In this document: in pieces, positions 1-64,000 of the stretch
How positions within the stretch are numbered: position 1 is the first letter of the stretch
Layout: each line of letters starts with the position of its first letter
NCBI GenBank assembly: GCA_007115995.1
Contig: SKJI01000007.1
Span: 8,989-72,988 of the forward strand
Reading direction: 5' to 3'
DNA length: 64,000 bases
Origin: a candidate division SR1 bacterium
GTDB taxonomy: Bacteria > Patescibacteriota > Gracilibacteria > Absconditabacterales > Absconditicoccaceae
Notes under the pieces: generated by a model
Told to the model about the DNA's origin: nothing
Seen by the model: the letters and a program-made list of their open reading frames with translations, nothing else
The model's database searches: none
Made by a program: the position numbers and the translations under genes

Positions 1-141
1 TTCATTGAGAAGAAGAGAAGCAAATGAATCCTGAAAAAGAGCACAACCATCATTGAAAACCTGTTATCAATTGAAAAAGCACGTATCAATTTCTGCCAGA
101 TATGTGAGGAGAGCATTATAAACTATGAGAAAATATTGTAA
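1..141 (+). CDS. 3' end of an unidentified CDS (47 codons). The C-terminal C-x2-C may be a DksA/TraR-type zinc-finger tail.
   Basis: Frame 1 is open from the window edge to TAA 139-141, with one in-frame TGA. Translation: ...IENLLSIEKARINFCQICEESIINYEKIL. Confidence 0.3.
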
Positions 142-213
142 AGAGAGAAACGAGCGAATAGTTAATATTCTGTGCTCTCATAGAGTATATGATCTACTGT
201 GTAATAACTATTA

Positions 214-786
214 TTATGTTCATGTTCGCTCTTTTCGAATTGTTTTAATCCTGTCAGTATGAGTAAGAGAAATCTTTGGAGTAGGATGAGGTTGATCAAA
301 CCGTGCTGTGTTTTTTTCGTGTATTCTATGATAGTGTCTTCAAAACGCTCTCGAAGGTAGGTTTATTGCACTATGTGGAAACATATCGAGGATCATTTGC
401 ACAAACGTGTTGCAGTTAGGTCCGGGAAGTGAACTATACGAATGAAGATAGAGAAATCAGGCAAGGTTGTTTTTGAGGAGATGAGCAAGTTGATATGCAT
501 CAGAGTGTTCTCATCAAGCGATTGTGTGTAAGAGTGTTGCTTGATAGAGTCGTTCGTTGTGTCGTGTAAAAATTGGTAATCATGCACCAAACTGAAGATG
601 ATTAATATGCATATATCACCACTGAGGAGATGCTTTATTGAGAAAGTGACGAATTTCATATCTATGGAGGGTGTTGTCAGGATCTTGTGTTTCAATTCGA
701 GTATGGATAGCAATGTTTTGTAGTATTGGGAGTGGACTACTGTAAATACGTACAATTCGTTCTTTTGTAGGAAGAATTACAACCAT
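214..786 (-). CDS. DUF3750-like protein (190 aa)
   Basis: ATG at 786, TAA at 214-216. Continuous only with TGA as sense. Motifs AIHT[CGA]IE...HRYEIRHF and SLPGPNCNTFVQMILDMFP..LPSRAFG match my recollection of DUF3750. Track ORF 393..755 is a different frame and is rejected. Confidence 0.55.
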
Positions 787-893
787 AGCATGCTTGGTCT
801 TGTATAAAAAACATACTTAACTATAATTTTTTTTGTAAGAGAGTCAAACTGTTGCACGATTCTGAGATACATACTTTATTTTCTTGGTCATAT

Positions 894-1775
894 ATGAGTA
901 ACCCTATTATACATACCCCTGTTTTATTTCAAGAAGTGATGCAGTCTTGTCCTGATGATGCTCACTATGTGATGGATGGAACATTGTGACATGGATGACA
1001 TACGTTGTGATTCTTGGCACAGTGACGTACTGTTTTGGGAGTTGATAGAGATCAAGCAATGATTGCAAAGGCAAGGCAGACTATAGACCAGCAGTATTTT
1101 GATGAGAATCGTATTCAGATTGTCCACGGAAGTTATGCTGATTTTGAGCATATTAAGCAACAGACTGGCGTGCAACAGGTTGATTATATACTGATTGATA
1201 TTGGGGTGAATATGGAACATTTTAAGGATGCGTCTCGTGGGTTTAGTATTAAGCATGATGGACCACTTGATATGCGCTATGATACCTCACAGTGACAACC
1301 AGTTGCACTATGGCTTGCCCAAGCAACGTATCAAGATCTTGTAGACAATCTTGTGGAATATGCAGATTTTTCTGAGAAATATATCGATTGGATTGCAAAA
1401 GAACTCGTGCAACATAAAAAATCACATCCTTTTCATACAACCCATGATGTGCGTGATTGCGCAAAAAATCTTGGTATTAACGACAAAAAACTTGCTGTTA
1501 TTTTTCAGTCATGGAGAATTCAGATTAATAATGAACTTGATGAGTTTGATAGATTTTTAGAAACATTTGTAGACTATTTGAGACCATGATGAAGATGTTG
1601 TATTATTACCTATCATAGTGGAGAAGATAGACGTGCAAAAATAGCACTGAAATCACTTGCAAAACAAAATATTTGAATTATACTAACTAAACATGTTATA
1701 AAACCATCATGGCAAGAAATACAAGTAAATAAAGCAGCAAGAAGTGCGAAGATGAGACTATTTGAGAAAATATAA
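894..1775 (+). CDS. rsmH: 16S rRNA (cytosine1402-N4)-methyltransferase RsmH/MraW
   Basis: HTPVLFQEV..DGTL(G)HG(G)HT, with TGA at 987, 996 and 1008 on glycines. Also GPLDMRYD and YHSGEDRRAK. Track ORFs 1035.. and 1353.. are the same frame joined by TGA. Confidence 0.9.
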
Positions 1776-1799
1776 AGTTTTTGATTCCTAATCTTCACA

Positions 1800-2165
1800 A
1801 TGAATAAGCTCGCATTTGTCAAAAGTATGTCTAAACAATACCTATTGATGCAGCATACACTTAGACGCAATAAAAAACTGTTTAGTAGTGCTAAACTTAT
1901 TGTTGTGTCAATAATCTTCTTTTTTGTTGTAGGTGTCTATGCAGTCAATATTACATCAGCATCTACAAAATGATACTTCCATAGAATAGAAACAAGAAAG
2001 CAAGATGCTTTGGTTTTTGAGCGTAGTATTGTTGATTTGGAGGTTTTGCAATTAGAAAAAAGACTGCTCGATAATGTCTGATGAATCAATAGCAGTCGAT
2101 ATGGATCAACAGATCGTATGGTGATTATTCAAACTTATGAAACTGATTTAGTAATGAGACCATAA
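1800..2165 (+). CDS. Small single-pass membrane protein, FtsL-like by position
   Basis: 121 codons directly after rsmH. One hydrophobic helix (LIVVSIIFFFVVGVYAV) followed by a polar/coiled tail. No sequence-level identification. Confidence 0.4.
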
Positions 2166-3196
2166 AACTCTTCCAATAATACTCTGAGTTCGGCGTATTC
2201 CTTTGCTGCAGGAATGCGTTTTTTTATTTCTTTGTTGTACTCCAATCCAGAAATATAATTAAACAAATATTTACGAAATTCACGAGGAGTGTAGTATCCA
2301 TCGTACTTTTCAGGATGTGCATGGATATGATCTGCACGGTTCTCTAACTGGTGGAGTGTTGGCTGTATGAGTATCGTGTGTCCTGTTTTTTCAGTCGATA
2401 GAGCTCGTTCTTTGAAGTATTGTTCTTGTGCCATAGCGAGTGCAAGATGACGAAATATTACAGCAAAACGTTCTTCAACTGATGGAGTTGTTTCTACAAG
2501 TACTCGAGGGTTACCGATTGCGGCTTGCGCGATCATTACGCCATCGAGTGGACCAATACGATCAGCGCAATCTTGATACGTTCTGATTCATCAATTTCAA
2601 ATAATGACTGTATCTGAGCAGGCTTGTTTGAGTTTATAGATAAATGGTCGATCGACTTCACCGCTATGAGATTGTTTATAAGTTCTTCAATGGACACCAA
2701 TCATCCAGACATACTTACTTGCTTCGACTAGAAATGCAAATTGTTCTTCTTTGTCTGCTTCAGTGAGTCATGCTCTTGTTTTGAGACTAAACGGAGTAGT
2801 GATGCTTTGTGCGATCTGCTTGAGAATCTGCAGTGTTTTTTCTTTGTTTTTGAGCATACCGCTTCATGCTTCACATTTCATAATTTTGGGTGATGGACAT
2901 CACATGTTGAGTTCGATTCATCCGAACGAGTAGTGTTGATCAAGCGACTGCGCACATGCAACCAACGTCTCTACATTTCATCAAAAAATCTGTGCAATCA
3001 GTTCTGACTCGTAGTCAGTCTGCAAGAGATGCTTGACGACTCAGACAGGATTATGCATATACCCATCCGCACTCATAAACTCCGTCCAGAGCATCAGCGA
3101 CTCATGCGGTTTCTGATAACGCAAAAAAATCTCTTTACAGATTATTCTGTATGCACAGTCCGTTACTCAATCCATTGGCGCCAATCAAATCTTCAT
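2135..3196 (-). CDS. dus: tRNA-dihydrouridine synthase
   Basis: MKI(G)LAPMD(G)VTDCAYR, ELNM(G)CPSPK, H(G)RTYKQSHSGEVD[CGA]PFIYKLK, AIGNPRVL. 354 codons in one frame with many TGA. Confidence 0.85.
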
Positions 3197-3207
3197 GCTG
3201 TCATTAC

Positions 3208-3265
3208 AGTATATATTTTGCTTGATGATGCTAGATGAAATAGTGTGAATCGTGGCAAGAGTAGA
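3208..3265. repeat. Copy A of a ~58-nt conserved intergenic module, 12 nt upstream of the dus start
   Basis: agtatatattttgcttgatgatgctagatgaaatagtgtgaatcgtggcaagagtaga. About 85% identical to 5466-5524. Confidence 0.6.
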
Positions 3266-3488
3266 TTTACTTGACTTTGATGTATATATGTATTTAAAGT
3301 TATTACTTATGTTTGAGTGCTAAAATCTTGGCTTATTTAGTAGCGTCTGTCTTTTTGGATGTAAAACATCCATTAAGAAAACATAAGTGATAGCCATGTT
3401 TTTTAGCTCTTGATTGTTTTGTAATCAAGAGCATTTTTATAAAAAGCCACTAACATCATATCAGAAACACCATAAAATAATTCATTTC

Positions 3489-5354
3489 TTATTCAATCAC
3501 TTCAAACCCTTTCTCCACGTCCTCGTAGACGTGGAGTTTTTTGTTGTCTATGACCCAGATTATATTACTGACTTGACTGAGAAAGTCTCTATCATGCGAG
3601 ATGATGATACTTACGCCAGAAAATTGTTGTAACATCATCGTGATGCTTTCTTTGCTGAGGATGTCGAGATGGTTGGTTGGCTCATCCATAATGATAACGT
3701 CAGGTTTGCTGAGGAGCATTTTGGTGAGCGCAACTTTTGCTTTTTCTCCTCACGAGAGAGTATCGATACGTTGTTGTGCTTTTTCTGCACTCACTGACAA
3801 TGATCATAATATCCCAAGAATCTCTTTCATACTAACTCATGGTCAGAGGAGTTCATCAATGATGCTCTGTGATCCATTCATACTGTCAACAATCTGTCCA
3901 TACGAACCAATAATAAGATTTGGTGCGATCTTTACTGATCCAGCAAGCAGTGCTTGTTCTCAGAGAATTGATTTGATCAAGGTGGTTTTTCATACTCAGT
4001 TTTTTCCAATAATACTGATTTGCATCGATTTGGTGACAACGAGTTTGGGTGGTAAGCTCACGAGAGGATCTTGTAGGTGATAGCCTATGAGACCGTCGAA
4101 TAGCGTGAGAATTGTTTCAGGAAGTCTTTTTTCAGAACGTTTGAGGGTGAGAGAACGTGCAGTATGCATATCTTCTGGAGCATCGATTTTTTGGATTTTT
4201 TCGATCTGTTTAATACGACTTTGGACTTGACGCGCTTTACTTTCTTTGTATCTAAAACGATTGATAAACGCTTCTTGTTGGTCGAGATATTTTTGTTGAT
4301 TGGCGAATGCTTTTGATTGTTGTTCAAATAGAGCAATTTTTTGCTCGAGATAGTCGTTGTAATTTCCTTTGTATCGAAAGAGTTGGTGATTACTAATCTC
4401 TACGACCTGATCAAACACTGTATTCAAAAAACGTCTATCATGTGAGATACAGATCAAGGTTTTCCCTCGTGCTTTGCAAAACTGTTCGAGAAACACAATA
4501 CCTTCGATATCAAGATGGTTGGTTGGTTCATCAAGAATTAGGAGATCTACTTGTTGGAGGAGAAATTTTGCAATTTGGAGTTTGGTTTGTTCTCATCCAC
4601 TGAGTTTACTGATCGGTACGGTGAGTTGTTCATCAGTCAATCAAAATCTATGAAGAATCGTTTTTTGCAAATCATAGAGAACAAAACCATTGTGGTGTAC
4701 AAGCCATTCGGTAATGTCTGCTTGCTGTTCAAGGAGATGAACGCTGTCGGGATCTTCTGCTTCGATACGACGTTGAAGAGTATCGAGTATGTCCATTGCT
4801 TGCGTGATGTCTGGAAGCGCAGTGAGTATTTCTTCAAGGACCGTACGTGATGCATTTTCTCGAAAAATATCTTGCGAGAGAAACCCAATCTTGATATCTT
4901 TTTGGAGCAAAATTTCTCCATTATCGATCTCTTCACGTCAGAGCAAGAGTTTGAGTAACGTTGATTTACCTGCACCATTTTTACCAATGAGCGCAATTTT
5001 GCTCCCAGCTTGAATCTGGAGATCTGCTTGTTGAAACAGAATCGTTGAACCGAGTTGTTTATCAACTCATTTGAGCGTCACGATAGGTTGTTTTGTTGTA
5101 TCCTTGGATGATTGGAGTAACCATTTGGGAATGGTCGTGAAACGAGCAGGTTTTTTGGTACTGATTTCATCCAGTAGATCGATTTCAAAGATACTACTGA
5201 GATATTTGAGTAGAATAGGGAGTTTATTTGATGCTTTGGTTTTACTTCACATCTGCAAAAGACGTTCTTCACACAGATCTTCAAGTTCTTGCATTGAAAA
5301 GGCTGTTTGCTCATGAGCAAGACGTTCGAGATAGGGTTGAAGTCATGGAAGCAT
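3489..5354 (-). CDS. ABC-F family ATPase (two ABC cassettes) with an N-terminal extension of roughly 90 aa
   Basis: Track ORFs 3489.., 3996.. and 4641.. share one frame. Walker A IALIGKNGAGKSTLLKLL, a second cassette IIGKN.., MDEPTNHLD, and the inter-domain linker QQKYLDQQEAFINRFRYKESKARQVQSRIK. Confidence 0.85.
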
Positions 5355-5465
5355 CACAATAAATAATTGGTTAAAGCGTGTAGAATGGACTGGAAAATGG
5401 TATTGGTGTGATATTTTCGAATAAGAAAGTTTTCTTTTATGAGGGCATCTTTTATTGCAATATAT

Positions 5466-5524
5466 AGTATATATTTTGCTTAATGATACTAGATGAAATG
5501 AGATGAAAACGTGGCAAGAGCAGA
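5466..5524. repeat. Copy B of the ~58-nt intergenic module, 112 nt upstream of the ABC-F start
   Basis: agtatatattttgcttaatgatactagatgaaatgagatgaaaacgtggcaagagcaga. Confidence 0.6.
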
Positions 5525-5533
5525 AACTATCTT

Positions 5534-6217
5534 CTAATCAAACAACTTCCTCAACACTTCCAACGCAAACGACTGATCCAAAAAATACGGTGAGGTTGCG
5601 ATAGTGACGAATGTGGCGTGTTGGATGAGCGTTTTTGTGCGATTGATCGTCTCGTGCGTGTGATTATTGGTCATACGTGGATCTCGAAAATCAAGGTCAA
5701 TATCAAGAATAAATGGCTGGTCTGGTATAGGGTTGTGCAAGACAGCATATTCTGTTCTTCGTTGTTCGCATGATGTAATGATACCACTAGTTAGTGCCGG
5801 CTGTATAAAACTGCCCACAGTGCAGTAATACTGCGTGTATTCCCAAACATAGTCCATGTCGTCACGCTTATCACGTGCAAATGGCTTGAGCGGTGTTCAT
5901 AAGTCAGCATGCTGGTCGATATGGATAACTGGATATAGTCCATGCTGTTGTCGTCGCCATGCCCACCAATATAATGCATGATTATGATTATCAAAAATAA
6001 CCGCATGATCGAACAGATAGAGATGAGCAAGTCCTATATAAGAAACCACGATACCATGATCATCACGTTCACAAAACACGCAGGTATTTCATAGACTAAC
6101 CTGATCGATTGATTGGATAGTTTTTTTGGATGGAATAGAGATCGATGCAGATCATGTTTCTTGGACTCTTTGATCGTATGCAAAGGTATTATTCCCATGA
6201 TTCGAAGAAAGAATCAT
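5534..6217 (-). CDS. Hypothetical protein, possibly UPF0489-type (DNHNHAL / HIDQHADL motifs)
   Basis: Track ORFs 5534.., 5897.. and 6152.. are one frame joined by TGA. The frame stays open to 6364. I chose the Met at 6217; 6235 and 6364 are alternatives. Confidence 0.35.
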
Positions 6218-6414
6218 TGTGTTGGTGTAGTGCATTGAACGTATCAGTAAGCAAAAGTAAGACGAGTTGTTCTTTGGTGTGAAAAGTTTTCTAAGTCTAT
6301 AGTGATGAATAAATAGAGTATATCTAATGAGTAATCGTTTAACAAGTGAAAATATCCCTTGCATATTCTATCATTCTTCTTGCAAACTTTTCTATTCTCT
6401 ATACTATAATTCAT

Positions 6415-7833
6415 ATGACTCTACAACTCATCTTATACAATCAATTGTGAGTACAGTGTTGTCTGCCGTGAGCAGAGCGTTTTTTGTTTTTGTTGTCTGA
6501 AAAAACGCTGAAATCACCGTATGGTCCATTACAGTTCAATCAGTTTTCCAAAGAGATAGAACACAAAGCGAGTCAATGGTTTATCAAACATCTCAACGAG
6601 CAGGGAAAGCAGGCAGATCGAAAGGCAGTAACAAACTATACGCAATGACTTCTTGAGTACTGTCAAGAATATAGTGTCGATACGGTAATGATTATGCAAT
6701 CATCTGAACCATCACTGCAACGTACATTGCAAACAATGCAACACACGCTCAATGAGCATGGTATTTCGATACAGCGACATGAAAATACTCAATTTTTGCT
6801 CTCTCATAGCAGATTTCTCAAACGTTTTCCAAAACCACCAATAATGGAGACGTTTTATCGTTGGATGAGAAAAGAGTTTGATGTTCTCATGGATGGTAAT
6901 GCACCAGTATGATGACAGCGAAATTTTGATAAAGAAAATAGGAAGTTTGACAAACACTATCAAATGCAGCAGACAGAACAATGAGTGTCATATCCGACTT
7001 CTCGTCCTGAAGCAATAGCACTATTACAACAATTCGTTGATAAAAAAATTGATCGTTTTGGTGAGCTTGAGGATGCAATGTACACGCATGATGAGTACGT
7101 TCATCATTCGTTATTAAGTACAAGTATAAATTTCTGATTATTGACACCATGGGAGGTTATTGATGCGATCTCCCAGACTGACACTGCAATCAATAACAAA
7201 GAGTGAGCAATTCGTCAGATTTTGTGACGAAGAGAATATATGTATCACTGGTTTATGTTTTACCATGAGACGATCTATCATGACAATGCACTCAATCATA
7301 CAACACCACTGCCAGATTGGTTTTGGTGGCCAGACGACTCACCGCTCCAGATGTATTGTGTCAACCATGTACTCAAGACGGTCAAACGTACCTGATATAG
7401 CCATCATATTACCAGATTGATGATTATTTGAAATTTTAGTCTATTAATGTGATATAATCCACATGATGTCAATAAACGATTCTGGGAGATGTATGCTGAT
7501 GCATTCGAACGAGTGGTGACACCAAATGTACTCGGTATGTCACAGTTTGTAGATTGATGAAATCTAGCAACAAAGCCGTATATTTCTTCTGCAAACTATA
7601 TCAACAAGATGAGCGATTATTGCAAACATTGTTATTATGACCCTAAACAAAAGGAATGAGAACGTGCATGTCCAATGAACTATCTGTATCGAAATTTTGT
7701 TGAGAAACATCGTAGTTTTTTTGCAAGGCAGCCATATATCGTGAGTAATCTTAAGAAGATTGATATTACCAAGGTCAAACAGCAAGCACAAACATTTATC
7801 AACCAAATAACAACCGTATCCAAGCAATTATAG
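6415..7833 (+). CDS. Cryptochrome/photolyase-related protein of the FeS-BCP / DPRP type
   Basis: (G)(G)Q[CGA]NFDKENRK, ILG[CGA]REYMY, AFE[CGA]VVTPNVLGMSQF, and cysteine pattern C-x87-C-x2-C-x12-C (MYCVNH ... DYCKHC...ACPMNY). Ends at TAG 7831-7833. Confidence 0.8.
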
Positions 7834-7902
7834 TGATCTTGCATTGTACCACGATATTCCTATACTTACAAACAACACGTTTATTTTTTTGTTACAAAAA
7901 AT

Positions 7903-9807
<1,905 letters not shown>

Positions 9808-9934
9808 TCAATATTTTTCTTGTAGTATGTGTACTTACGTATTCTACTGGTAGGATCTGTATGGTATCTGCTGGTAGAGTAGTGTTGCATGTCTTGTGCT
9901 TTATTCTTCTATCAATCGTGTCTCTATGTTTCAT

Positions 9935-10477
9935 ATGATTTCAGGAAAAAAAGTTGTTTATGATCATTGTACCATGATACACAATGATATGTTTGGTATA
10001 GAGGTAACATACACAGGTCAACAACAACTCTGACAGTTTTTTTTATATCCACAGCTTGATCAAAATAATCAGACTATTAGATATTATGCATTTGATGATA
10101 TTTTACAAAAAACTCAGTTTGAACAATTACTCAAGCTTCCATGAATTGGAGGCAAGACAGCTTATCATATCGCATCGTTACCTCATAATCTCTTAGAGGA
10201 TGCAGTAGAAAAAATGGATGTTGCTTTTTTTCAGTCCTTACCATGAGTCTGACCTAAGACTGCAAAAAGACTTTTGTTGGAGCTTAAACAAACAGTCTCA
10301 AAAGATGATATGATGACACTGTCTGGTGATCCAAAAATTGCTCAAGATATCACGAAATCGTTACAGTCGTTATGATATCAACAGCAAACAATCAAATTAT
10401 TACTACCAGATGTTCCATATCGTTTTGAAAAAGAACATATTCCTGATATTATGAAGCGATTGATAGATCATATGTAA
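9935..10477 (+). CDS. ruvA: Holliday junction DNA helicase subunit RuvA
   Basis: MISGK.., two HhH motifs LLKLP(G)IGGKTAYHI and LP(G)V(G)PKTAKRLLLELK. An alternative ATG lies at 9926. Confidence 0.85.
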
Positions 10478-10502
10478 GAATGTTTTATTTATTGTGCTAT
10501 TT

Positions 10503-12929
10503 ATGTTTGATTTTGGAATCTTATGAATGAATGCAAGGAACTTATCATATATAAGAAAGTTCAATAATAAAAAAGCAATTCGTTTGGCTGATAATAAAGA
10601 GAAAACAAAACGTTTTTTACATGCAAGATGAATACCAGTACCTGAAACATATGCACTTATTAAAACATATGATCAGCTTTGGTCGTTTAATTTTCGTGAT
10701 ATTGAAGCAGATCAGTTTATTATTAAACCAGTGAGATGAAGTAGAGGAAGATGAATTTACCGTGTTGGATGTCTCTGAACTATCAAACAGTCTACCATAA
10801 TGCAATTTTGACCACAAACTTTTGATTTCTCAATTTCTAAACATTCTCCATATGTTGATGAGTATTATAAAGTAGGTTCATCACTAGTAGACGATACAAC
10901 ATTAAGAAGGTATTTATTGGATATTTTATATTGAAGAAATTCACTTGTTTGAGATAAAGATCAGATACTTATAGAAGAACTGTTAGTTCCATGATGAGGA
11001 TTTGAACCATTTTGCGAGCATGGTTTAGCAGATATTAGAGTGATAGTGTTTAACTTGATTCCAGTTGCTGCGATGCTTCGTGTTCCTACGCCAGAGTCTG
11101 ATGGTAAAGCAAATCTTGATAGATGAGCACTATGAATGGGTATTGAAGTTTGATCATGAAAAGTGTATTGAATGTATGTATGATGAAAAATTCATCAAGG
11201 TCATTTCCCAGATAAATATAAATCGTTTGCTCATAAAACAATTCCTTATTGGGATGAAATTTTATTGTATTCTTCAAAAATTCAATATTTTGCAAACTTA
11301 TGATATTTAGCTCTGGATTGGGTTATTACACCTGATTGACCAAAATTGCTTGAAATCAATGCTAGAGCATGATTAAAGTTTCAGTTAGCTGCTCAGCTCC
11401 CACTCAAAAGAAGACTCGAAAAAATAGGTGATCTCAAGGTAGTTACACCAGAAAAATGAGTTGAAATAGCACAAACATTGTTTAGTCACCACAAAACTCC
11501 ACCAGTTGCAAGCTCAAAATTACTCTATTTGACACAACATGGTACATTAACATCACTGTATGAAGCAAAAGAAAAGGTGGTTACAAATGTGATTGTGCAA
11601 GTAGATATCAATAAACGTCATAGTTATGTCTCTGTAGATTTATGGCCTTTGGTCTTACAGACGAGAAAAACCATAGTAAAGACTGAGCAGTGAGTGGAAC
11701 TTTCACATATTAAACGAAAAAAATTAGAAAAACAATATAAACATAGAATAATTCTGTGAAGAGAAGCAGTAGCAGAATATTATGTCAAACCAATCAATAA
11801 AATTTTCACCTCACTTTCATTTATCAATCCCAAAAAAATCTTGCAGTCTGAAATTGATGATATTCATATTTTGGATCAAAGAGTCGATAAGCTAGCGAAA
11901 CAGATTAACATTTCTAGAATCTTGAAACCGATAAATTTCTTGGAAGAACTTGATACTTTTATAACTCGGAATGGGAAATATAATCCACATTTTCATTATG
12001 CTTGGCCAACAAATAAGTCATTACGTCTGTTAACCGAGCAGTCTGACATGCTTTTGGAAAAGTATTTTGGTACAAGTTGATTGCAAAGTAAATTTGCGCA
12101 ATTATTTAAGGAAAAAATTAGAGAAATTCAGAAGAAGGTTGAGCTGATAAGAGCATATAAATCACAAGATTTTCATCGTATTATTCAAGCAAATCAAGCA
12201 TTGTTTTGAAAACTTGATAATGATCTTATTCAACAAGCGTGAGCGTGTTTTATTCAGCATGTTGATCAAGATAGAACCATCTTATGACCAGTACTAAAAC
12301 GTGAAAGAATATTTGCATTGATAAAAACATACATGCATGAAAGATGATTACATGATGTGAAAATAATTTTTGATAGTAATGCATTATGAAGGATGTCTAT
12401 CAAAAGATGAAGAATCTTGACGATCAGAATTTCAGAAGTTGCTTGATTTAGAGAGCAAGAGCTTATTGCAACATTGGCGCATGAAGTGGATGTACATATA
12501 AGAAGATACCAATCTTGAATAGCCACATGATGGCATATCCTCAAAAATTGAACTGCATGATATATAGTAGATGAGGAATGACTTGCTGTATACAAAAGTT
12601 TACAACATCTTCCTGATGAGTATGAGAAAGTAGGAATGTATCAAAAATATTACTTGTTGAGTATTACCCAAGAAAAATCCTTTTCTGATTTGGTTTGAAT
12701 TATTAGATCGTTATCAAACAAATCATTAATGTGATCATTTAAGGCAGCCTTGAGATTAAAGAAGTGAATTACAGATACCGAGAGAGATGATTGAATAGTC
12801 TATAGCAAAACGAAAATATATCTCGAATGATATACTCATATTTGTAAACGAATAGAAGCGTGATGAGACGTTGAGCAACTTTTAAGTATTTGAAAAATAA
12901 AAACATCTGATTTATCTTATATACAATAA
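10503..12929 (+). CDS. Fusion protein (808 aa): N-terminal ATP-grasp (RimK/alpha-L-glutamate-ligase-related) domain plus C-terminal DUF1704/QEGLA-motif metallopeptidase-like domain
   Basis: N-terminus MFDFGIL(G)MNARNLSYI, IKPVR(G)SRGR(G)I, ADIRVIVFN, LEINARA(G)L. C-terminal half LAHEVDVHIRRY (HE-x3-H) and VDEE(G)LAVYKS (QEGLA-like). One uninterrupted frame, checked codon by codon at risky spots. Confidence 0.7.
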
Positions 12930-12938
12930 TCTGAACGT

Positions 12939-14471
12939 ATGATACAAGAAACGATACAAGCATGTGCAGATCGTATAAAAAATACTCCGTGATTGAGAGA
13001 GATTCTTGAATTAACATATGCATATGATATTACTGATCATCATATATACTATAATAAAACACTTTTCAAAGAGTTTTCAGATTGTTCACAATGTAAGAGC
13101 TATGACGAATATTATCAGACACTCTCACGTGCATTTGATCAAGTAAAAAATGATATCACTTACTATTACGGTGTTTTTCAAACATTGCAGTCTTTGGATG
13201 TATATACTGCAACAGTTGTGGACATTATGAGCCGTTATTGTGAATATCTTTTGGATATGATACAGATTGCATACACATGATTGCCATTTGAAATAGAAAA
13301 AATGTGATATACATTACCGTTTTGAGAAGAAGAAATACTCCATCGTCTCAAACAGATTGCAGCATGAGAACAAAAACGATTTGGAACGTTAGTCAAAGAC
13401 GATAGATATGAAGCAAGTAGAGTAATATACTATCTTGAAACATCACTCAAAGAACTCTGATTACAAAGATTAACATACGATGAGATCAAACAGTTTACAC
13501 AATACATAAAAATCCTCAAAGAGCAGAGTAAATACTGCAAAGAGTTTTGTGATGATCATGAAGATCATATTGAGTATATCATGACAGGGCAGGAGTATTT
13601 TGCACAACCGATTCATAGGTCGATCTATGTACAAATTTTTGCCCATGTTTTTGCTATATATGGTATCGAAAAGCCGATACGTATAGAAAGTAGATCATCG
13701 ATGTATGATGGTGTTGATGCATTTTGTATTCCTGATAGTCCATGATACGAAACATTATCGTTGCAAAGAGTCTTGGAGTTGGTCTGTCATGAAATAGAAA
13801 TACATTATCTTGTGCAGCATAATTGATCTCTGCTTCTACCGATTACTGATTGAGCAAACTCATTGTTTAAAGAGGAGTGACTTGCCAAGTTTATGGAAGA
13901 GATATTGGATGGTGCGACATTAATCAATATGGATATTACCCCATCAATAATACAATTATTAGCGTGTGAAATTTTGTGATGAGATGATTGTATGCAATTC
14001 TTGAAGATATACTATCGTTTGAGAAATCAACAAGATCAATGGCTTGGATACTTCCTAAGACGCAAAAGAAACTATGCGATTGCATATCCATGAACGCAAC
14101 ACAAAGACATTACTTATAGTAGATGAAGATTTGCTGTGAGATGATATTTAATGGATTGATGAGATTTTCTGTCGCTCTATTATGCTAAAGTTGATTTTCA
14201 TGATATTGCATTATTATCATCTGTGATCTCACAGCAACAAAAACAACACTTGCTTTATCCTTTATTTATCACTGAAAGAGTGCTACATCGTTTACTATGA
14301 GATAAACGTTCATGGGATGATCTGCTCGCAAAAAAATATCCGTTTATTGATTTTGCATCATATCCGTCGTTGGAGCTCAATAAACAACAAACCCATCATA
14401 TCGAAGCAATTATTGGTCTCATTCATGATAATTTACCAATCCCTGATTATTTTCATTCATGAAAAATATAG
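12939..14471 (+). CDS. Second DUF1704/QEGLA-type domain protein (510 aa), a paralog of the C-terminal half of the upstream fusion
   Basis: VCHEIEIHYLVQHN (HE-x3-H) and FKEE(G)LAKFMEE. Starts 9 nt after the previous stop. Confidence 0.6.
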
Positions 14472-15136
14472 AACATCCACCACTTCATCAACTCCGACAG
14501 CGTCACTTAGCAAATGAGCTTTGATCTGACTGGTTTATGGAACTCATGAATCAGCTTGATCAGGTGCGTCAGCAAGGTGAACAACTCTGTCCTGCATATG
14601 ATCAAATATTTGCTGCATGCAATCATACACCGTTGGATAGTATTCGTGTGGTGATTGTTTGACAAGATCCCTATCATGGACCAGGACAAGCACATTGAGT
14701 TGCATTTTCTGTGCCTGATGGTGTGCGTTGTCCGCCATCGTTGAGAAATATCTTCAAGGAACTGCATGATGATTGTGGTATTGAGCCACCGCAATCTGGG
14801 AACTTACTTCGTCGAGCAGAGCAGTGAGTCTTCTTGCTCAATAGTTGTTTGACTGTTTCGATGCACAAGCCAGCATCGCATGCTCATCTCTGACGAGAAC
14901 GTCTGACCGATCGTATGATTCAGCTTGTCGCTGATCAGTGCAAGCATTGTGTGTTTTTATTGCGATGAGCATTTGCACAATCTAAACAACACCTGATAGA
15001 TGCTCAGCAGCATCTTATCTTGACTGCATCGCATCCTTCACCTTTTTCAGCAAGAAGGTGATTTTTTGGTTCACAACACTTTTCGCAAACAAATAATCGG
15101 CTCATCTCGCATGGGTATCAACCAATAGACCGATAG
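14459..15136 (+). CDS. ung: Uracil-DNA glycosylase (family 1)
   Basis: VVIV(G)[11 protein letters not shown](G)[23 protein letters not shown]. Aligns along its length with E. coli Ung as I recall it. The start overlaps the upstream stop by 13 nt. Confidence 0.9.
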
Positions 15137-15181
15137 ATTTCTATTTGTAGTTCTCAATAAAATAACTATAGTATCGATATC

Positions 15182-16819: not shown

Positions 16820-16825
16820 TTCTTC

Positions 16826-21383: not shown

Positions 21384-21407
21384 GTGAGATATGTATAGAA
21401 TAAATTA

Positions 21408-23423: not shown

Positions 23424-24308
<885 letters not shown>

Positions 24309-45201: not shown

Positions 45202-45234
45202 ATAGATAAGTTGTTCTTTTACTCAAGACATCAC

Positions 45235-49887: not shown

Positions 49888-50826
49888 TTACTCTTCAACC
49901 AGACTATCATGGTGTTGTGCAAAGAGTTCTTTGATTGCAGGAGGAGAGTCATAAGCTGGGAAGAGGAGCTGATTGAGTGCAATAGTGCAATCTATAGTTT
50001 GTGCAATGGCACCATTATTGCTAGCATATGTATCTATTTCAGATTGTGTGTATCAATTTTTTAGGAGTATTGCTGTGATTTCTTCTAATGATGCAAGATG
50101 GTATGAATGTTCTACTTTTCTTCTTGTTTCATCATAAATACGTTTTCAGTCTTTAATAGAAAGAGCTATCTCAAATGGTTTTTGATCTTCTTTGTGAATA
50201 TAATGTACGTCGCTTGTAATGACAATTGCTGTTTGTGTCTCGTGAGCAAGTTGTTTAATAGTTTGATTAACAGTTTTGAGTGACTGATCCTTGTTTTCAT
50301 CGTGTGCACTAATCATACAGTATACTTGATTAGGATGTGTTGCTTGTTTCAGGAGTTGTAAGGTCTCATGTAATTTTTCAGAAGATTCATTGTGCATAAT
50401 AAGTTCTCCAAGCATACTACGAGGTGTTCATATAAGGCAGTATAGATCTGAACCGTATTGTTTGAGTGTTGTGATATCTATTCTTGGGATCTGTGAATAT
50501 CATTCCATTTGTGCAAATGAAATAAGTTCAAGAAGGTCTTGATATCATTTGGTTGTTTTTGCCAACAATACAAGATATCATCATGCATGATCGTTATGAT
50601 TGCGTGCATCATGGACACAAAATAATTCTACGCCAATGAGTGGCTTGATTGAGTGTTTTTCTGCTTTTTGATAAAATTCTATTGCACCGTAGAGACCATG
50701 ATAATCACTTAATGCACATGCATGCATTCATAAATCAGCAGCCTTTTGGAGATATCACTCTGGTGATCATATTGCTTCTAGCAATGAATAATGTGAGTGT
50801 ACATGCAAATGAATAAATCAACTCAT
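49888..50826 (-). CDS. DnaE-type PHP domain protein: the N-terminal ~310 aa of DNA polymerase III alpha, ending at a TAA
   Basis: FIHLHVHSHYSLLEAI(G)SPE, (G)MHACALSDYHGLYGAIEFY, IKPLIGVE, YLVLLAKTTK(G)YQDLLELIS, VITSDVHYI, LLFPAYDSPP. Stop at TAA 49888-49890. The convergent GT2 gene follows. Confidence 0.75.
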
Positions 50827-50907
50827 AACAAAAATATTAATAATCAAAGAGTGTAAGTATATCTATTCTCATATTGAATACAATATTCCATTGAGTATGA
50901 TAGAACT

Positions 50908-52953
50908 ATGTTTAGACAAGTAGGTTTTTTTTCTTTTCTTTTTTTCTTGAAGCTTGCATGCTGATATTTTTTCTCGTTTCCTGTATCTGCATCTACAGTA
51001 GTTTGATCTCTTAATCTACAGACTCGCCAAGAACGATGAGCAGATGAATCATTGAGATATGGAAGATGAGCAACAGTGACAACAAGCTTTAATCAAGAAG
51101 GAGATCAAACTGATTCAACAGCACCACTCAATAATCAAGAAAAAAATATTGTGAGAACAAGATTTCTCCAAGAGCAATTCCCACAATATATAATGCCAAC
51201 GCGTATTGAAACACATGAGTGATCAAATCGTTTGAGATGGCCATTACAGTATACCCCCAAAACATGAATTATATTACATCATACGGCTGATGGATTTGTA
51301 TACGAGTATCCACAACAAACATATCAGTATATTCGTGATATTTATCACTCACATGCTCGCCAAAGAAACCGATGAGATATTTGATATAATTATCTTATAG
51401 ATCCATTTGGCAATACATTTGAGTGAAGGGCTTGATGACCTACTGTTGCATGAGCGCATACTGCATGGAATAATGCAACAACAATATGAGTATCATTGAT
51501 GTGAAATTATCATCTTAGACAACCTTCACAAGCTATGTGGTCTGCACTTGTTAATCTGCTGACATACTTATCTGTAACATATGAAATCAATCCATGAGAT
51601 CGTCACACGTACTTTGAGGCAACAGACCAGTACCCGTTTATTGAAGTACTCAATAATTATGCATTAATAGGGCATAGAGATGCTTGAGACACTGTGTGTC
51701 CTGGTCAGTATGTCTATGCTGAGTTACCATCATTGAGAATGGAAATTATCCAGCGTTTACAACGATTAGATAGTCATGGTATTGAAGAGCTGCAGCTGGA
51801 AAATTTTGTACGTCGTGTAGAACCATTTATTCTATCAGGAGATACTGGAGTGTTGCGGTTTGATCGTCTCAACAATCATGCTGTATCATGCAAAAGTTTT
51901 ACTGCATCACAAGCTATAAGTTCCTGTCATTTGTTATGAGAAAAAATTCTCATCACTATACCGTATGTATGAGCTGGTTCATCTTGAAGACTTTCGTTAT
52001 GAATACAGCAATGACCAGCAGTACAGTTTTTGGATGTAGCTATAGTGTGGGAACAAGAATTTACTGAGTCGTTTTTACAAGATCATAATGCGCAGGTATC
52101 TTCAGCATTGAAACAAGATCAAGCCGTGCCTTTATCAGCACTATGGCATCATATGCAATCACCCATTTCTGTTTTATTGTATCAACCAACCGCTACGCTC
52201 AACACATGGGAATTTAGCTGTACGTGAACATGTACAGTGCTTGCAGGAGAGAGGTTTGTGCATAATCCATCTCATATACGTGTAGCAAAGGCAGGAGATC
52301 AAAGATTACAAATAATTATAGATGATGAGTTGATCTGGGCGCAGAGTTTTGGTATCAGTACTCTCTGATGAGAGATAATATTAGAAAATTTTACAAGAGC
52401 GGAACACTGAACTGCATTAAATAGGTTTCAGTGATCAATAACTATTACGTCTTCAAAACGACAAGATTTACAGTGAATACTTCATGAGTGATTTATTGTT
52501 GTCAATACCCTTGCTTTGGATGAGTATCTCCATGGTGTCTCAGAGTGGTCAGAACACTATACTGATCAAACATTAGAACTATTGGCAATACTTGCAAGAC
52601 AGTTTGCGTTATTATATCGTTCAGGAGCTATAAGGCATCCTGCAATACCACAATGAGTATGATATCATAGTATTGATCATCCTGAACTGTTTCAGTGATA
52701 TGTTTGAATATGACAAAAGGACTATGCTCAAAGACGATGAAGAGCAGTAGAAGCAAGTAGAGGAAAGTATGTCCTTCTTGAAGATAATGCAGTAAGACTT
52801 ATGCCCTTACTTCGCTATAAATCATGACTTTCTAGAGGCACAACTCTTGGGTTACGTGATGTTGATTATTGGTTGCATCAATGAGTATTGGCTCAAAGAG
52901 TGCTTGATCGATTTATGCCTGGTGTAACAATTGTTTCATGATATCTCTTTTAG
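50908..52953 (+). CDS. Secreted N-acetylmuramoyl-L-alanine amidase (Amidase_2/PGRP) fused to a SpoIID/LytB domain
   Basis: IILHHTA, HARQRN[CGA](G)DI(G)YNYLIDPFGNTFE(G)RA(G)(G), (G)AHTAWNN, L(M)(G)NY. Later VVNTLALDEYLHGVSEWSEHY and ARQFALLY. Confidence 0.8.
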
Positions 52954-52995: not shown

Positions 52996-54618
52996 TTATG
53001 CTCAATTCTTTTTTTGTGCAGCATGTATAAATCATACAAAAAGAGGATGAGGATGTTCTATTGATGAGGTAAATTCTGGGTGTGCTTGCGTAGCAACATA
53101 AAATGCATGGTTCGTAATTTCTATAAACTCGACAAGTCATAGTGTAGCATCTTTTCAACAAAGGTGTAGTCATCACTGTTCCAAACGATCATAGTATGCA
53201 GGATTTACTTCAAATCTATGTCTATGTCTTTCTTGTATCGTATTTTTGTTTAAACGTTCTGGTCCATAGGTAGAATATAATGTATAAACACGAGAATCTG
53301 TATCTAGATGTGTTGTATAAGCTCCCAATCTCATTGTTCATCATTTGAGTAGCTCATCCGATTGTCATGGCATATAACTAATAACAGGATCTTGACAGTT
53401 TTGATCTGCTTCTACAGTATGAGCATGTTGTATCTTCAAGACATTCCTTGCATATTCAATAACTGCCATTTGTAATCATAGACACAATCACAGAAATGGA
53501 ATATTGTGTGTTCTTGCATACTGTGCAGCTGCAATTTTTCATTCCATTCATCTACTTCCAAATCACCCAGGAATAACCAACCCGTCAATACCATCCATAA
53601 TTGTCTGGAGTGTATCAGCATGAGTAAAGTCATCAGCTTGTAGTCGTTTGATAGTAATTTTTTTATGAAATACTATGCCAGCATGTTTGAGCGCTTCAGT
53701 AACACTCATATAAGAATCTTGTTGTTCTGCGTATTTTCAGACCATACCGATAGTGAGTTTGTCAGGTGCATGTAAAAGACTATCAACTTTTTGATTCCAT
53801 AAGGTTATATCTGCAGAAGATGCTCATAAACCAAAATGTTCTAAAATTATTCTATCTACTCCTTGTTCTTGAAAGAGTGCAGGAATTTGATAGATAGATT
53901 CTACATTACGGTTTTCTATTATTGCTGATGCATCAATATCACAAAATAAGCTCAGTTTTTCTTTGATCGATTCAGGGAGAGGATGTTCTGTTCTACATAC
54001 AAGCATATCAGCATGAATACCCATACTTGCTAAATTTGCATAAGAGTGTTGAATTTGTTTAGATTTAAACTCTCAAGAGTAGTTAAGATAGAGTACAGGA
54101 ACAACGTGAGCATACATCACGTTTTCTTTTCATAATGTTGCTTTCAATTGTCTTGCAGCTTCAATAAAATGAGGTCATTCTATATCTCATATAGTTCATC
54201 AAATTTCTATAATGGTAATATCATATTTTCTAGCAACGGTAAAAATTTGCTCTTTGACTTCATCAACCACATGAGGTATAACTTGAATATTTTTTCATAA
54301 GTAATGACCAATTCTTTCTTTCTCTAAAACAGTTTTGTATATTTTTCATGTTGTAATACTATTGTCTTTACTGAGTGGTGTATTGATAAATCTTTCATAG
54401 TGTCATAGGTCAAGGTCGGTTTCTCATCAATCTTCAGTCACAAATACCTCTCAGTGTTCATATGGAGACATTGTTCATGCGTCTATATTGAGATATGGGT
54501 CAAGTTTTATTGTGGAAACTTTAAATCAAGCAGCTGAGAGAAGTTTTCATATTGACGCTGCAGTGATTCATTTTCCTAATCATGAGATAACTCATCAGGT
54601 AACAAAGAGAAGTTTCAT
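52996..54618 (-). CDS. pyrG: CTP synthase
   Basis: LLFVT(G)(G)VIS(G)LGK(G)[15 protein letters not shown](G)TMSPYEH(G)EVFVTED(G)(G)ETDLDL(G)HYERF, IP(G)(G)FGSR(G)MEGKI, FL(G)LCL(G)[11 protein letters not shown]. 541 codons. Confidence 0.95.
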
Positions 54619-55872: not shown

Positions 55873-56199
55873 ATGGCAGTACATGATATAGTGTGAAAAG
55901 AACAACTTGATGCTCTCTTATCTCAAGATTGATTAGTTTTTGTAGATTTTTGGGCTGAATGGTGTGGTCCGTGTAGAATGTTATGACCAGTTTTACATGA
56001 AATTGCTGAAAAACATCCTACGGTACATGTTGCAAAAGTTAACGTCGATGAAGAAGCAAATGGACCATTAGCGATGGACTTTGCAGTAAGAAGTATTCCA
56101 CAAGTCACCATCTTCAAAAATTGACAACAAGTTGATCAATTTGTCTGAGCGCTACCGTTGGAACAAATTGAATCATATATTGAAAAATATTCTGGATAA
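55873..56199 (+). CDS. trxA: Thioredoxin
   Basis: VFVDFWAEWCGPCRML(G)P...VAKVNVDEE...SIPQVTIFKN(G)Q. Confidence 0.9.
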
Positions 56200-58061: not shown

Positions 58062-59723
<1,662 letters not shown>

Positions 59724-59899
59724 TTCAGACTGTAAAGCATTTATCATAAAAAATGAGTAGTCAACTATTTTTTTCTAGAAAATACACTTGTAAATTATAC
59801 TCTGAATGAAGAGATTACTAATTTTGCTCTTTGCACTGTTTTCAGTATACTAAGAGTACTGATAATAGAATAATTTTTATTTGTAGTGAAGTTTGCTTG

Positions 59900-62368
59900 A
59901 TGATATTATCAATTGCTGAGCGTTTATGATGAGTACTTGCATCGATCTTTGGTACAAAGCAATCACAGAATAATTCTATATGTTTTGAAATTATCCCATA
60001 CAAAGAAAATGAGTTTGGGCAAGCACATTGGTGATCATTCCTTGCAAATTTTTCTAGTTTTCAGGAACATCTCTATTTTTCAATCGAATGAAACACGAAG
60101 CAGATCAAACTCTTTATGTATGCGCCAGAAAGCTATCAAGAATACATAAGAAATATTTTTTATGCAACATTTCCTACCAGTGATATAAAAATTCACCCAC
60201 AAAAATCACTCAAAAAACACCCATCTAATCTTAAATTTTCTCATGACAGTGTGTTTTATGAAACACATGAATTTATGAAATGATGAGAATATGTTGATCC
60301 ATTCAAAGATGTTCTTTCGCTTTTTTGATCAATTCCTCAAGAATGAACACTTTCGTTACTATATAGTTGTCAATTTAAGGTAAAAAAGACTTTTTTTCAA
60401 AAATGTTTAGCGTTGCGAAAGAAATTTTTTAGTAACGATAAAAGTGAAAAAAACACAAATGATAAAGAAGAAGTAAGTCAACAAGAAAATGTAAAAAAAG
60501 TTTGAAAAGATGTAATATTTGCTTTACAGTATTTTTTACATTTAGATCCGCAATGATATATAAATAAAGTAAATACAGACATTAATCATGTTTTTGATAA
60601 ATTTTTACAACAAGGAACAGTAAAGCCATCACAGTCTATTCATTGGGTGAGTACTAACTTAGATGCATTTATCAATCTCTTTCATATCCCAACTAAATCA
60701 TTCTTAAACAATACTTTACATTATATTCCATATCGTAAGTTAGAACATCCTGTTAATTTGCCAATGTTATCAAATACATCAAGTGATGATCTAACTATTT
60801 TATGAAAAACAGAATACAAAAACCAATGAATTGAGTTTGGTATCAAAACAGAAGATAAGTTTAGACATGTATATATTGTGTGAAAAACGTGAATGTGAAA
60901 ATCTACATTCATTTCAAATATGGTGAGAAGTGATATGCAGACTAATCATTGATTAGCAGTGATTGATCCTCATGGCGATCTTATTGATGATGTATTAGTA
61001 CATATTCCATCTCATCGTATCAATGATGTTGTGGTTTTTGATGTGAGTGATACTGCATATCCTGTCTGATTTAATATTTTGGAATTTAATACTCCTGAAG
61101 AAAAAACGCTCGTAGCATCTGCTGTTGTTTCAATCTTCAAAAAACTCTTTGCGCACAGTCGATGACCAAGATTAGAGTACATCCTCAGAAACGTTATGTT
61201 GTCTGTGCTTGACTATCCAAATACAACATTGATGCATGTGATGCGTATGCTCAACGACAAAAAATTTAGAGAAGAAGTATTGACACACGTATCTGATCCA
61301 GTTGTGATGAAATTTTGGAGAGATGAGTATGACAAACGACAACCAAGACAAGTTCAAGAGGCAGTCTGACCGATCGCAAACAAAATTTGACAGTTTTTAT
61401 CATCTCCAGTTGTGAGGAATATTTTTGCTCAGCCCAAGAGTAGTTTGCAGTTAAGAAAAATTATGGATGAAGGGAAAATATTGCTTATTAATCTTTCTAA
61501 ATGAAAGATATGAGAAGATAATGCGAGTATGCTGTGATCTTTTCTTGTCTCTAAATTCCAAATTGATGCTATGTCTAGAGCTGATGTAGATTATAATATG
61601 AGAAAAGATTTTTATTTGTATATTGATGAGTTTCAAAACTTTGCAACTGACTCATTTGAAAGTATCTTATCAGAAGCAAGAAAGTATCGTTTATCATTGA
61701 TTGTTGCAAATCAGTATACTTCTCAAATTCAAGAAAATGTCAGAAATGCAATTTTTGGGAATGTCGGGACTATCGTGAGTTTTGGTCTGTGATATGATGA
61801 TGCAATGCTTATGTCTCAACAGTTCAAAGAGCTTATTTCTCCCAATGATTTACTTTCATTGCCTAAATTTAAAGCATATGTAAAGCTTATGGTTGATTGA
61901 GTTACTACTGACCCTTTTACTATGGGGACATTTCCTCTACCATTACCTGAATCATGACCAGAAATTAAAGAAAAAATTCTCAAACAGTCAAGACAGCGTT
62001 ATGCAACTGAAAGAGAAAAACTTGAGTCGCTCTTGCAAGCTCGAATGGAAAAGCAGTTTACAGAGTCAGAAAAAGTCATCGAGAAAGTGCAACAAGAAAC
62101 TCTCAAACAAGATGGTACAACATTTAGTATAGATGATTTAAAAGTATGAGAACGATATGACTGATATGTGAAGCTAAAATATAATTATTGATTATTTGTG
62201 ACTGTAAAAGGTGTAGAGTGATTATTACATAAATCGTTGGTTAAGGTGCCAGACACCTTATCATCATGGAAAGACTTGTATGTTATTTGAGATAAGATAT
62301 CTGTCAAGGTTGACTGATTCAAAGAAATTGAGTGAGAAAAGAAAATTGTTTGGACGCAAAAAGATTAG
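59900..62368 (+). CDS. VirD4/TraD-type coupling-protein-like P-loop ATPase, paralog 2, with a C-terminal S1 RNA-binding domain (822 aa)
   Basis: Walker A HVYIV(G)KT(G)M(G)KSTF, VIDPHGDL, LLINLSK(G)KI(G), FYLYIDEFQNFATDSFESILSEARKYRLSLIVANQYTSQ. Tail V(G)E[CGA]YD(G)YVKLKYNY(G)LFVTVKGVE(G)LLHKSLV...V(I)(G)DKISVKVD. Codon-checked over 59939-60900. Confidence 0.75.
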
Positions 62369-62477
62369 TGAGAGCATTTTTTGAAAAAAAAGCAATAAAC
62401 ACAAGGAAAAATTTATTGCAAAACATTGATAAAATAGTACTGTTGATAAATACTCAGTTTATTATTTTTCTTATTTC

Positions 62478-64000
62478 ATGACTTTTTCTAAAAAATACTC
62501 TCCTTCATTTGAATCAGATATATATACATATCGAGAGCAGCATGGTGTATTTAAGCCTAAAGCATCGAAATGATGAGAAAGGTTTGTTACATTATTACCA
62601 CCTCCAAATGTTACGGGAAATTTACATCTTGGACATAGTATAATGTGTGCTATTCAAGATGTTATGGTGAGATATAATCGTATGAATCAAAAGGAAACAG
62701 TATGGATACCTGGAACTGATCACGCATCGATCTCCACACAGGTTGTTGTCGAAAAAATGTTAAGAGAGCAAGGTATACACAAAGAAGACCTTGGCAGAGA
62801 GAAATTTCTTGCAAAAGTTTGGGAACGAGTAACACAAACAAGATCAACTATCGTATCACAAATCAGATCAATGTGAGCATCAATTGATCGAGAGAGAGAA
62901 CAGTTTACAATGTCTGAAGCACTTTCACGTGGTGTGAGACATGCCTTCAAAAAACTATATGATCAATGAACAATTTATAAGTGAGACTATATGGTCAATC
63001 GATCTCCTGGTGCACAAACAGTCTTATCTGATCTTGAAGTTGAAAATAAAGAAATAAAAACAAAAATGTATTTTATAAGATATTTTTTACAATGAAAAGG
63101 AGATGCAATTACAGTTGCTACAATTCGTCCAGAAACTATTTTTGCTGATGTTGCTCTAGCAGTTCATCCCAAAGACAGAAGGTACAAAAAATACATTGGT
63201 AAAAATGTACTTATTCCTATTATCAATAGACCAATTCCAGTTATTCCAGATGAAAATGTACAGATAGAATTTGGAACGTGAGCGCTCAAAATTACTCCAA
63301 CGCATTCTGAAATCGATTATGATATCGCTAAAGTACATGAACTTCCTATGAATATTTATGCGTTTGATAAAAATAATATATATACTGATCAGGCATGAGA
63401 AGATTTTGCCTGAAAAAATGTTTATGAGTTTATGGAAAATCTTGTGTATCATTTACAAGAAATTTGAAATATAGAAAAGATAGAAGATTATGAAACCACT
63501 ATACCAGTTTGTGAAAGAACTTGAGTAACCGTACAACCATTACTTTCAAAACAGTGGTTTATGGGTGTAAAGAGATCTGCAGAAGTTGTTTATAATGCTT
63601 TTGAAAACGAACAAGTAGCAGTACATCCACCAAAATTCCAAAAAACATTTCTAAACTGGCTTGAAGATATTAGACCATGGTGCATTTCTAGACAGCTCTG
63701 GTGGTGACATAGAATACCTGTCCGATATACTGATAATTGAGAAAAACTTTGTTTTGATGAGACAAATGTATTGCAGCATAATACTTGAATCTATCAAATT
63801 TTATCAATGATTATTTTTAATTGTATAGCTGATAGTCGTTTAACGAATCCATTCTCATTGGAATCGTTACTAGACTTACTTACTCAAACAAGTATTGTTG
63901 AGGCAAACGGTCGTGTGATTGATGTGTATTGTGCGATTTATAAAGAAAAATACAAAGATGACCCTATTTTACTTAATGAAATTACTCTCTTGGAGTCGTT
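62478..64000 (+). CDS. valS: Valyl-tRNA synthetase, 5' part (runs off the window)
   Basis: [35 protein letters not shown][CGA], SID[CGA]ERE, MVN[CGA][33 protein letters not shown](G)HRIPV[CGA]Y. Confidence 0.92.

Follow-up and report, generated by a model that had tools for sequence, protein, structure and literature searches.

We are highly confident that the stretch analyzed here, 64,000 nucleotides of contig SKJI01000007.1 (the window), belongs to the chromosome of an uncultured member of the Absconditabacteria (candidate division SR1) that reads UGA as glycine and CGA as tryptophan. A previous reading of the window, made from the sequence alone, had recognized the first of these reassignments and overlooked the second. 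The rare codon CGG probably also specifies tryptophan. UAA and UAG are the only stops, and AGA, AGG, CGU and probably CGC are still arginine codons. The evidence comes from gene structure, from alignment to Escherichia coli orthologues, from codon exchange with three related genomes, from Pfam scores and from codon balance.

Genes are intact when TGA is a sense codon

Genes were called as greedy, non-overlapping open reading frames (ORFs) on the 64-kb window, and the calls were compared across genetic codes. Under NCBI table 11 the coding density is 0.49, the median ORF is 79–80 amino acids long, and no ORF reaches 300 amino acids. With TGA as a sense codon the density rises to 0.91–0.92 and the median ORF to 271–295 amino acids, and 26 ORFs have at least 300 amino acids. 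Freeing either of the other stops served as a control: TAG gave a density of 0.63, a median of 91 amino acids and no ORF of at least 300 amino acids, and TAA gave 0.73, 92 amino acids and three such ORFs. In 20 shuffled sequences with TGA as sense, the mean density was 0.35 and the median ORF 77 amino acids, again with none of at least 300. Counts of stop-to-stop ORFs agree with the greedy gene calls.

The TGA-sense calls comprise 55 gene models with 751 in-frame TGA codons (3.85% of codons), 114 CGA and 9 CGG, in DNA with a guanine-plus-cytosine (GC) content of 34.8%. Of the models, 54 have their end within the window, and each of these stops at TAA (32) or TAG (22), as had been noted from the sequence. 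This is built into the gene caller, so density and ORF length are the real test. With UAA and UAG as the sole stops, gene lengths match those of orthologues. Six of the greedy calls are likely spurious (g15, g18, g19, g35, g49 and g50). The false ORFs g49 and g50 are explained by a gene on the opposite strand, over which they had been placed: it lies at 55873–56199 on the forward strand and encodes a thioredoxin (WCGPC motif, Pfam score 93 bits).

These results bear out the earlier view that the fragments of each gene lie in one frame and are split only by TGA, since no TAA or TAG interrupts the models, and they support the conclusion that the fragmented ORF track is a translation-table artefact. 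A fragmented track under table 11 is also what would be seen if the standard code applied and the interruptions were pseudogenes, sequencing or assembly debris, TGA readthrough, or selenocysteine at special sites. We consider this explanation extremely improbable. The fragments of each gene share a frame, TGA is the sole interrupting stop, and its 751 sites are concentrated on conserved glycines. The same pattern is found in orthologues from independent assemblies. Positions 1–19807 of the window are 100% identical to the ENA contig ERZ27301260:k141_586750 (79,455 bp), and the contig is also present in NCBI and Logan, giving an identical sequence in three sources.

TGA behaves as a glycine codon

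Sixteen proteins of the window, in which X stood in for each TGA, were aligned with E. coli K-12 orthologues (13 E. coli regions, 5966 columns). TGA stands opposite E. coli glycine in 144 of 244 columns (59%, against a glycine background of 7.7%; P = 5e-94) and opposite tryptophan in one. This profile is the same as that of the GGN codons, which face glycine in 120 of 187 columns (Fisher p = 0.32; GGA 73%, GGT 56%). The method is validated by the other well-sampled codons: for every codon with at least 25 aligned positions, TGA aside, the commonest E. coli partner is the standard amino acid.

Codon balance leads to the same assignment. GGN codons alone make up 2.3% of codons, too low for glycine, and 6.2% when TGA is added. 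TGG makes up 0.84% and would reach 4.7% together with TGA, too high for tryptophan. TGA therefore fits glycine, of which it is the majority codon (61–62% of glycine codons).

Pfam scores were compared for three genes, each on the forward strand: uracil-DNA glycosylase (14459–15136), the RsmE methyltransferase (16070–16819), and the N-terminal part of valyl-tRNA synthetase (ValRS; 62478–64000), which continues past the window. Reading TGA as glycine (table 25) rather than as tryptophan (table 4) raises the scores by 25–34 bits, from 32.5 to 58.8 for uracil-DNA glycosylase, from 67.4 to 92.6 for RsmE and from 212.6 to 246.8 for ValRS.

Codon exchange was assessed at orthologous positions in three relatives, which we call L017, L015 (Candidatus Absconditicoccus praedator) and L016. 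Window TGA codons are paired with GGN or TGA at 151 of 204 positions in L017, 40 of 50 in L015 and 56 of 72 in L016, the behaviour of a synonymous glycine codon.

The placement of TGA on conserved glycines, which the sequence-only reading had proposed, can be followed in individual genes. FtsZ (40138–41325, forward strand) has 31 in-frame TGA codons, and its G-box at 40192–40218 reads ATT TGA ATC TGA TGA GCG TGA TGA AAC, just as had been quoted. The FtsZ tubulin signature was correctly located at 40450–40488 and incorrectly transcribed: after the serine the string is not three TGA codons in a row, and the whole reads AGM-TGA-TGA-TGA-S-TGA-T-GGA-A-TGA-P. In RsmH, the 16S rRNA m4C1402 methyltransferase (852–1775, forward strand), TGA is found at 987, 996 and 1008 within DGTL-G-HG-G-HTL-G. 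GyrB (7903–9807, forward strand) has 38 in-frame TGA codons, 27 of them opposite E. coli glycine, and contains LE-TGA-LE at 7936–7950 and RP-TGA-MYIG at 7963–7983. CTP synthase PyrG (52996–54618, reverse strand) has 35, with 26 opposite E. coli glycine. SufB (32505–33914) and FtsA (38903–40081), both on the forward strand, have 21 and 18 in-frame TGA codons.

Walker A motifs follow a similar pattern. SufC (25232–25960, forward strand), in which 12 of 14 aligned TGA codons are opposite E. coli glycine, has TGA-KN-TGA-S-GGT-KS at 25337–25360. A generalized Walker A string quoted previously (G-TGA-KS-TGA-T-TGA-KS) has no exact copy in the window. The nearest matches are TGA-K-S-GGT-T-TGA-K-S at 47122–47145 and TGA-K-T-TGA-M-TGA-K-S at 60881–60904, in two TrwB/TraG/HerA-like ATPases on the forward strand. 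The first of these (45193–48441) has 48 TGA codons, and the second (59831–62368) has a C-terminal S1 domain.

A competing reading of TGA is table 4, the Mycoplasma/Spiroplasma-type code in which TGA is tryptophan and which the public pipeline used. Table 4 also restores the long ORFs, and the three public proteins of the contig that we checked have W at TGA. Its chance of being correct is nonetheless minimal. It requires tryptophan at a codon that faces E. coli glycine 144 times for each time that it faces tryptophan, a proteome with 4.7% tryptophan and just 2.3% glycine, Pfam scores 25–34 bits lower, and exchange in relatives with TGG, where exchange with GGN is seen. Glycine, by comparison, is supported by four independent tests: E. 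coli columns, codon exchange, Pfam scores and codon balance.

A further test, using GyrB relatives from databases, was dropped as circular because those proteins were translated under assumed codes; the public GyrB of the contig itself (P0001), for example, has W at 38 of 38 TGA sites. In the search that gathered these relatives every glycine of the query was masked, not the TGA sites alone.

CGA behaves as a tryptophan codon

The same E. coli alignments point to a second reassignment. CGA is opposite E. coli tryptophan in 13 of 24 columns and opposite arginine in one, and CGG is opposite tryptophan in both of its columns. Pooled, the two codons face tryptophan in 15 of 26 columns (background 1.2%; P = 6e-23) and arginine in one. 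Their tryptophan fraction is like that of TGG, which faces tryptophan in 24 of 51 columns (p = 0.47). The other arginine codons face arginine in 94 of 219 columns and tryptophan in none, and their arginine fraction differs from that of CGA and CGG (p = 3e-5). Because the query had R wherever CGA or CGG occurs, the alignment was tilted away from this outcome.

Exchange with relatives agrees. Window CGA is paired with TGG, CGA or CGG at 19 of 31, 5 of 5 and 3 of 3 positions in the three relatives (27 of 39 in total), with no arginine codon among the listed partners, and window TGG reciprocally pairs with CGA or CGG. Reading CGA and CGG as tryptophan on top of table 25 adds between 3.4 and 30.5 Pfam bits, bringing uracil-DNA glycosylase to 62.8, RsmE to 96.0 and ValRS to 277.3.

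Several of these codons fall on what we take to be conserved tryptophan positions. The isoleucyl-tRNA synthetase (IleRS; 1338 amino acids, 17367–21383, forward strand) has CGA at 18492–18494, on the first W of WTTTPWTLP. Uracil-DNA glycosylase has five CGA codons and one CGG, and in its FLL-W-G segment CGA (14963–14965) is followed directly by TGA (14966–14968). The same juxtaposition occurs in a protein with Amidase_2 and SpoIID domains (50908–52953, forward strand), where CGA at 51370–51372 and TGA at 51373–51375 give N-W-G-DIGYN. ValRS has five CGA codons, including one at 63723–63725 in HRIPV-W-Y. Methionyl-tRNA synthetase (MetRS; 58062–59723, forward strand) also has five, as well as a CGG at 58893–58895 in FHAIY-[CGG]-LAM, presumably the family tryptophan position (FH..W-PAM). 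In GyrB, 42 of 120 database relatives have R where PEQLWETTM has its invariant tryptophan, apparently the same phenomenon across the lineage.

In this reading CGA and CGG supply 43–47% of tryptophan codons. CGA occurs at 58 per 10,000 codons over all gene models and at 40 per 10,000 in the E. coli-aligned columns. AGA is the main arginine codon (423, with 244 CGT, 50 AGG and 31 CGC), and AGA, AGG and CGT behave as arginine both in the E. coli columns and in codon exchange.

These data bear on the proposal, made in the sequence-only reading, that the window uses table 25 unmodified, with CGA and CGG still arginine. That proposal was right about glycine at TGA and about UAA and UAG as stops, and CGA is fairly rare at the overall frequency given above. 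Where it fails is in the 15 of 26 columns on tryptophan, a partner that other arginine codons never have, in the exchange of CGA with TGG, and in the gain in Pfam bits. A CGA/CGG reassignment has moreover been published for this lineage (PMC8629427). We regard plain table 25 as very unlikely, and the comparisons support tryptophan rather than arginine for CGA.

Source of the window and variation among relatives

The best named GyrB matches are to Candidatus Absconditabacterales and Ca. Absconditicoccus praedator, at 58–63% identity, and the window is syntenic with L017. The IleRS has an unusual domain order in Pfam, with tRNA-synt_1 in two stretches, NUDIX at residues 228–320, His_Phos_1 in two stretches, and Anticodon_1. 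An SR1 IleRS into which a Nudix domain and a pair of phosphoglycerate-mutase domains are inserted has been described by Kantor et al. (2013, mBio, PMC3812714). The GyrB matches, the IleRS inserts and the R at a GyrB tryptophan in relatives agree with the origin in an SR1/Gracilibacteria-type member of the candidate phyla radiation that had been proposed from the code alone.

Stop-codon recoding occurs in some phages, and the two TraG/TrwB-like ATPases might suggest that the window comes not from a cellular chromosome but from a phage or another mobile element with a changed code. The rest of the window makes such an origin exceedingly unlikely. Housekeeping genes dominate (rsmH, gyrB, ileS, sufBC, dnaN, ftsA, ftsZ, pyrG, metG and valS), and there is synteny with Absconditabacterales chromosomal contigs of at least 0.4 Mb.

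Use of the two reassigned codons differs among the relatives. L016 (GCA_030429145.1, JAUIDC010000001.1) has a gyrB without in-frame TGA. TGA accounts for a share of 0.19 of its glycine codons, and CGA and CGG for 44% of its tryptophan-type codons. Across the three relatives the TGA shares range from 0.19 to 0.64 and the CGA-plus-CGG shares from 0.27 to 0.50, with no simple tracking of GC content. Use of the two codons thus varies independently across the lineage. Given the majority share of TGA among glycine codons, the 43–47% of tryptophan codons supplied by CGA and CGG, and a CGA use at or above the published ceiling, it is conceivable, and we suggest it only tentatively, that both reassignments have reached a late, "rebounded" stage in the genome sampled by the window. 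Should the whole genome behave in this way, the spread of a captured codon following its reassignment could be reconstructed from the graded series that this clade would then provide.

Proposed decoding machinery

The literature on the lineage suggests how such a code would be decoded. UGA would be read by a dedicated tRNA-Gly(UCA) with the identity elements G1:C72, C2:G71, G3:C70 and U73, and release factor 2 would have been lost. CGA and CGG would be read by tRNA(UCG) and tRNA(CCG) carrying tryptophan identity, and a tRNA-Arg(GCG) would keep CGU and CGC as arginine. The rarity of these codons before their capture is attributed to low GC content (35% in the window).

Several observations weigh against the two-reassignment reading or leave parts of it thin. 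A search for tRNA genes in the window and in 78.7 kb of the 79,455-bp contig (all but its last 724 bases) yielded none, and no PCRF/RF-1 domain was found among the gene calls examined for the two contig ends or the window proteins scanned. A structural pattern scan of a genome collection for tRNA-Gly(UCA) returned 41 loci, mostly in GC-rich standard-code genomes, with no named Absconditabacteria tRNA among them; the pattern used probably does not match the actual SR1 tRNA. CGG has just nine codons, and in relatives one of six is on TGG, with none of the six on an arginine codon. CGC is sparse, with one of five columns on E. coli arginine and 7 of 19 positions in relatives paired with CGT, CGC or AGG. 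The codon meanings rest wholly on comparison, which leaves room for ambiguous or partial decoding. On balance we retain tryptophan as the probable meaning of CGG and arginine as that of CGC.

Beside gyrB in three relatives, the only tRNA found was one tRNA-Arg(CCU). Among the 41 scan loci, L042 is the only contig that looks recoded. Its UCA tRNA (2420–2493) has glycine identity, with G1-C2-G3 paired with C70-G71-C72, U73 and the anticodon loop CUUCAAC. Class-I UCA tRNAs with glycine-type acceptor stems were also seen in GC-rich standard-code genomes (L026, 269–341; L038, 2860–2933; L051, 153–226; L021, 1799–1871). They are often clustered with tRNA-Thr and tRNA-Tyr, in a slot normally occupied by tRNA-Gly(UCC). 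Assembly errors could account for them, or they could be opal-suppressor variants that occur naturally.

Public annotation

The sequence-only reading had expected standard gene callers to report this DNA as pseudogene debris. That expectation holds for table 11. The public pipeline, however, used table 4, and full-length proteins were deposited. The public GyrB (P0001) was translated with table 4, and for two more genes of the window the public protein collection contains exactly the table-4 product (P0121 and P0122). In these three proteins each TGA appears as W (38 glycine sites in GyrB) and each CGA as R, so all three are mistranslated at every such codon.

TGA and CGA together make up about 4.5% of residues in the window gene models. 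Moving to table 25 would mend most of the errors, the tryptophan sites excepted: the 55 gene models would keep 123 mistranslated codons, the nine CGG included, or about 0.6% of residues. Correct translation of the window needs table 25 with CGA, and probably CGG, as tryptophan, a combination that to our knowledge has no NCBI table number. The table-4 errors depress homology scores, by 25–34 bits in the three Pfam tests above, and would distort phylogenies and predicted structures. Gene callers tend to choose table 4 on contigs of this kind (PMC3812714). The value of the present result is practical, lying in a correct code assignment and an annotation hazard and not in discovery. Per-codon tabulation against a single standard-code reference found both reassignments in 64 kb and would be a cheap check elsewhere.

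Other features of the window

The two TrwB/TraG/HerA-like P-loop ATPases are paralogues and resemble type IV coupling proteins; the S1 domain of the second is an RNA-binding domain. Upstream of the uracil-DNA glycosylase gene lie an ATP-grasp (ATPgrasp_ST) protein (10494–12929, forward strand), whose L017 orthologue has a weak MATCAP/DUF1704 match, and, following it, a 510-amino-acid protein with no recorded Pfam match (12939–14471, forward strand). This gene pair also adjoins uracil-DNA glycosylase in L017. E. coli DnaE aligns at its N-terminus with a stand-alone PHP-domain gene (49888–50847, reverse strand), and in L016 the PHP domain and polymerase core are likewise in separate genes, which suggests that DnaE is split in this lineage.

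A small ORF at 48478–48735 (forward strand) contains three tandem copies of SERETPEQG and has no family match. The protein encoded at 29419–30906 (reverse strand) has a peptidoglycan-binding PG_binding_1 domain followed by many leucine-rich repeats; it is possibly a surface protein or one involved in interactions. Two stretches, 21383–22016 and 23590–25232, are gene-poor and contain weak ORFs only. Rfam at its gathering threshold gave no match in the window or contig ends, and no rRNA was found there. The sole RNA-family signal of the gene-poor stretches is a sub-threshold RatA match at 21550–21624 (reverse strand; E = 0.078), which is probably due to chance.

Comparison with known codes

The window can be set beside one previously described genome and three known codes. 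It shares its IleRS architecture with the SR1 genome RAAC1/ACD80 (Kantor et al. 2013, PMC3812714), which belongs to a different organism. With NCBI table 4, the code of Mollicutes and some endosymbionts, the window has in common that UGA is a sense codon and that ORFs are thereby restored. It differs in that UGA is tryptophan in table 4 and glycine here.

NCBI table 25 records the UGA-to-glycine reassignment of SR1/Gracilibacteria, attributed by the papers that cite them to Campbell et al. (2013) and Rinke et al. (2013), with an extra tRNA-Gly(UCA) given as the mechanism. Glycine at UGA and the stops UAA and UAG are common to table 25 and the window. In table 25 both CGA and CGG are still arginine, whereas in the window CGA behaves as tryptophan and CGG probably does.

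The closest match is the Absconditabacteria code inferred with Codetta by Shulgina and Eddy (2021, eLife, PMC8629427), in which CGA and CGG are tryptophan besides UGA being glycine. They reported tRNAs consistent with the CGA/CGG assignment, absence of tRNA-Arg(ACG), GC contents of 0.26–0.38, and CGA use below 37 per 10,000 in Pfam-aligned columns. A 2026 paper in Nucleic Acids Research treats the reassignment as accepted. UGA as glycine, CGA as tryptophan and AGA as the main arginine codon are shared with the window, whose GC content of 0.348 lies within the published range, and CGG is much rarer than CGA in both. CGA use in the window is at or slightly above the published ceiling, a comparison that is indicative only since the denominators differ. 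The window thus fits a known code that is distinct from table 25, and both of its reassignments were already known, UGA to glycine from 2013 and CGA/CGG to tryptophan from 2021.

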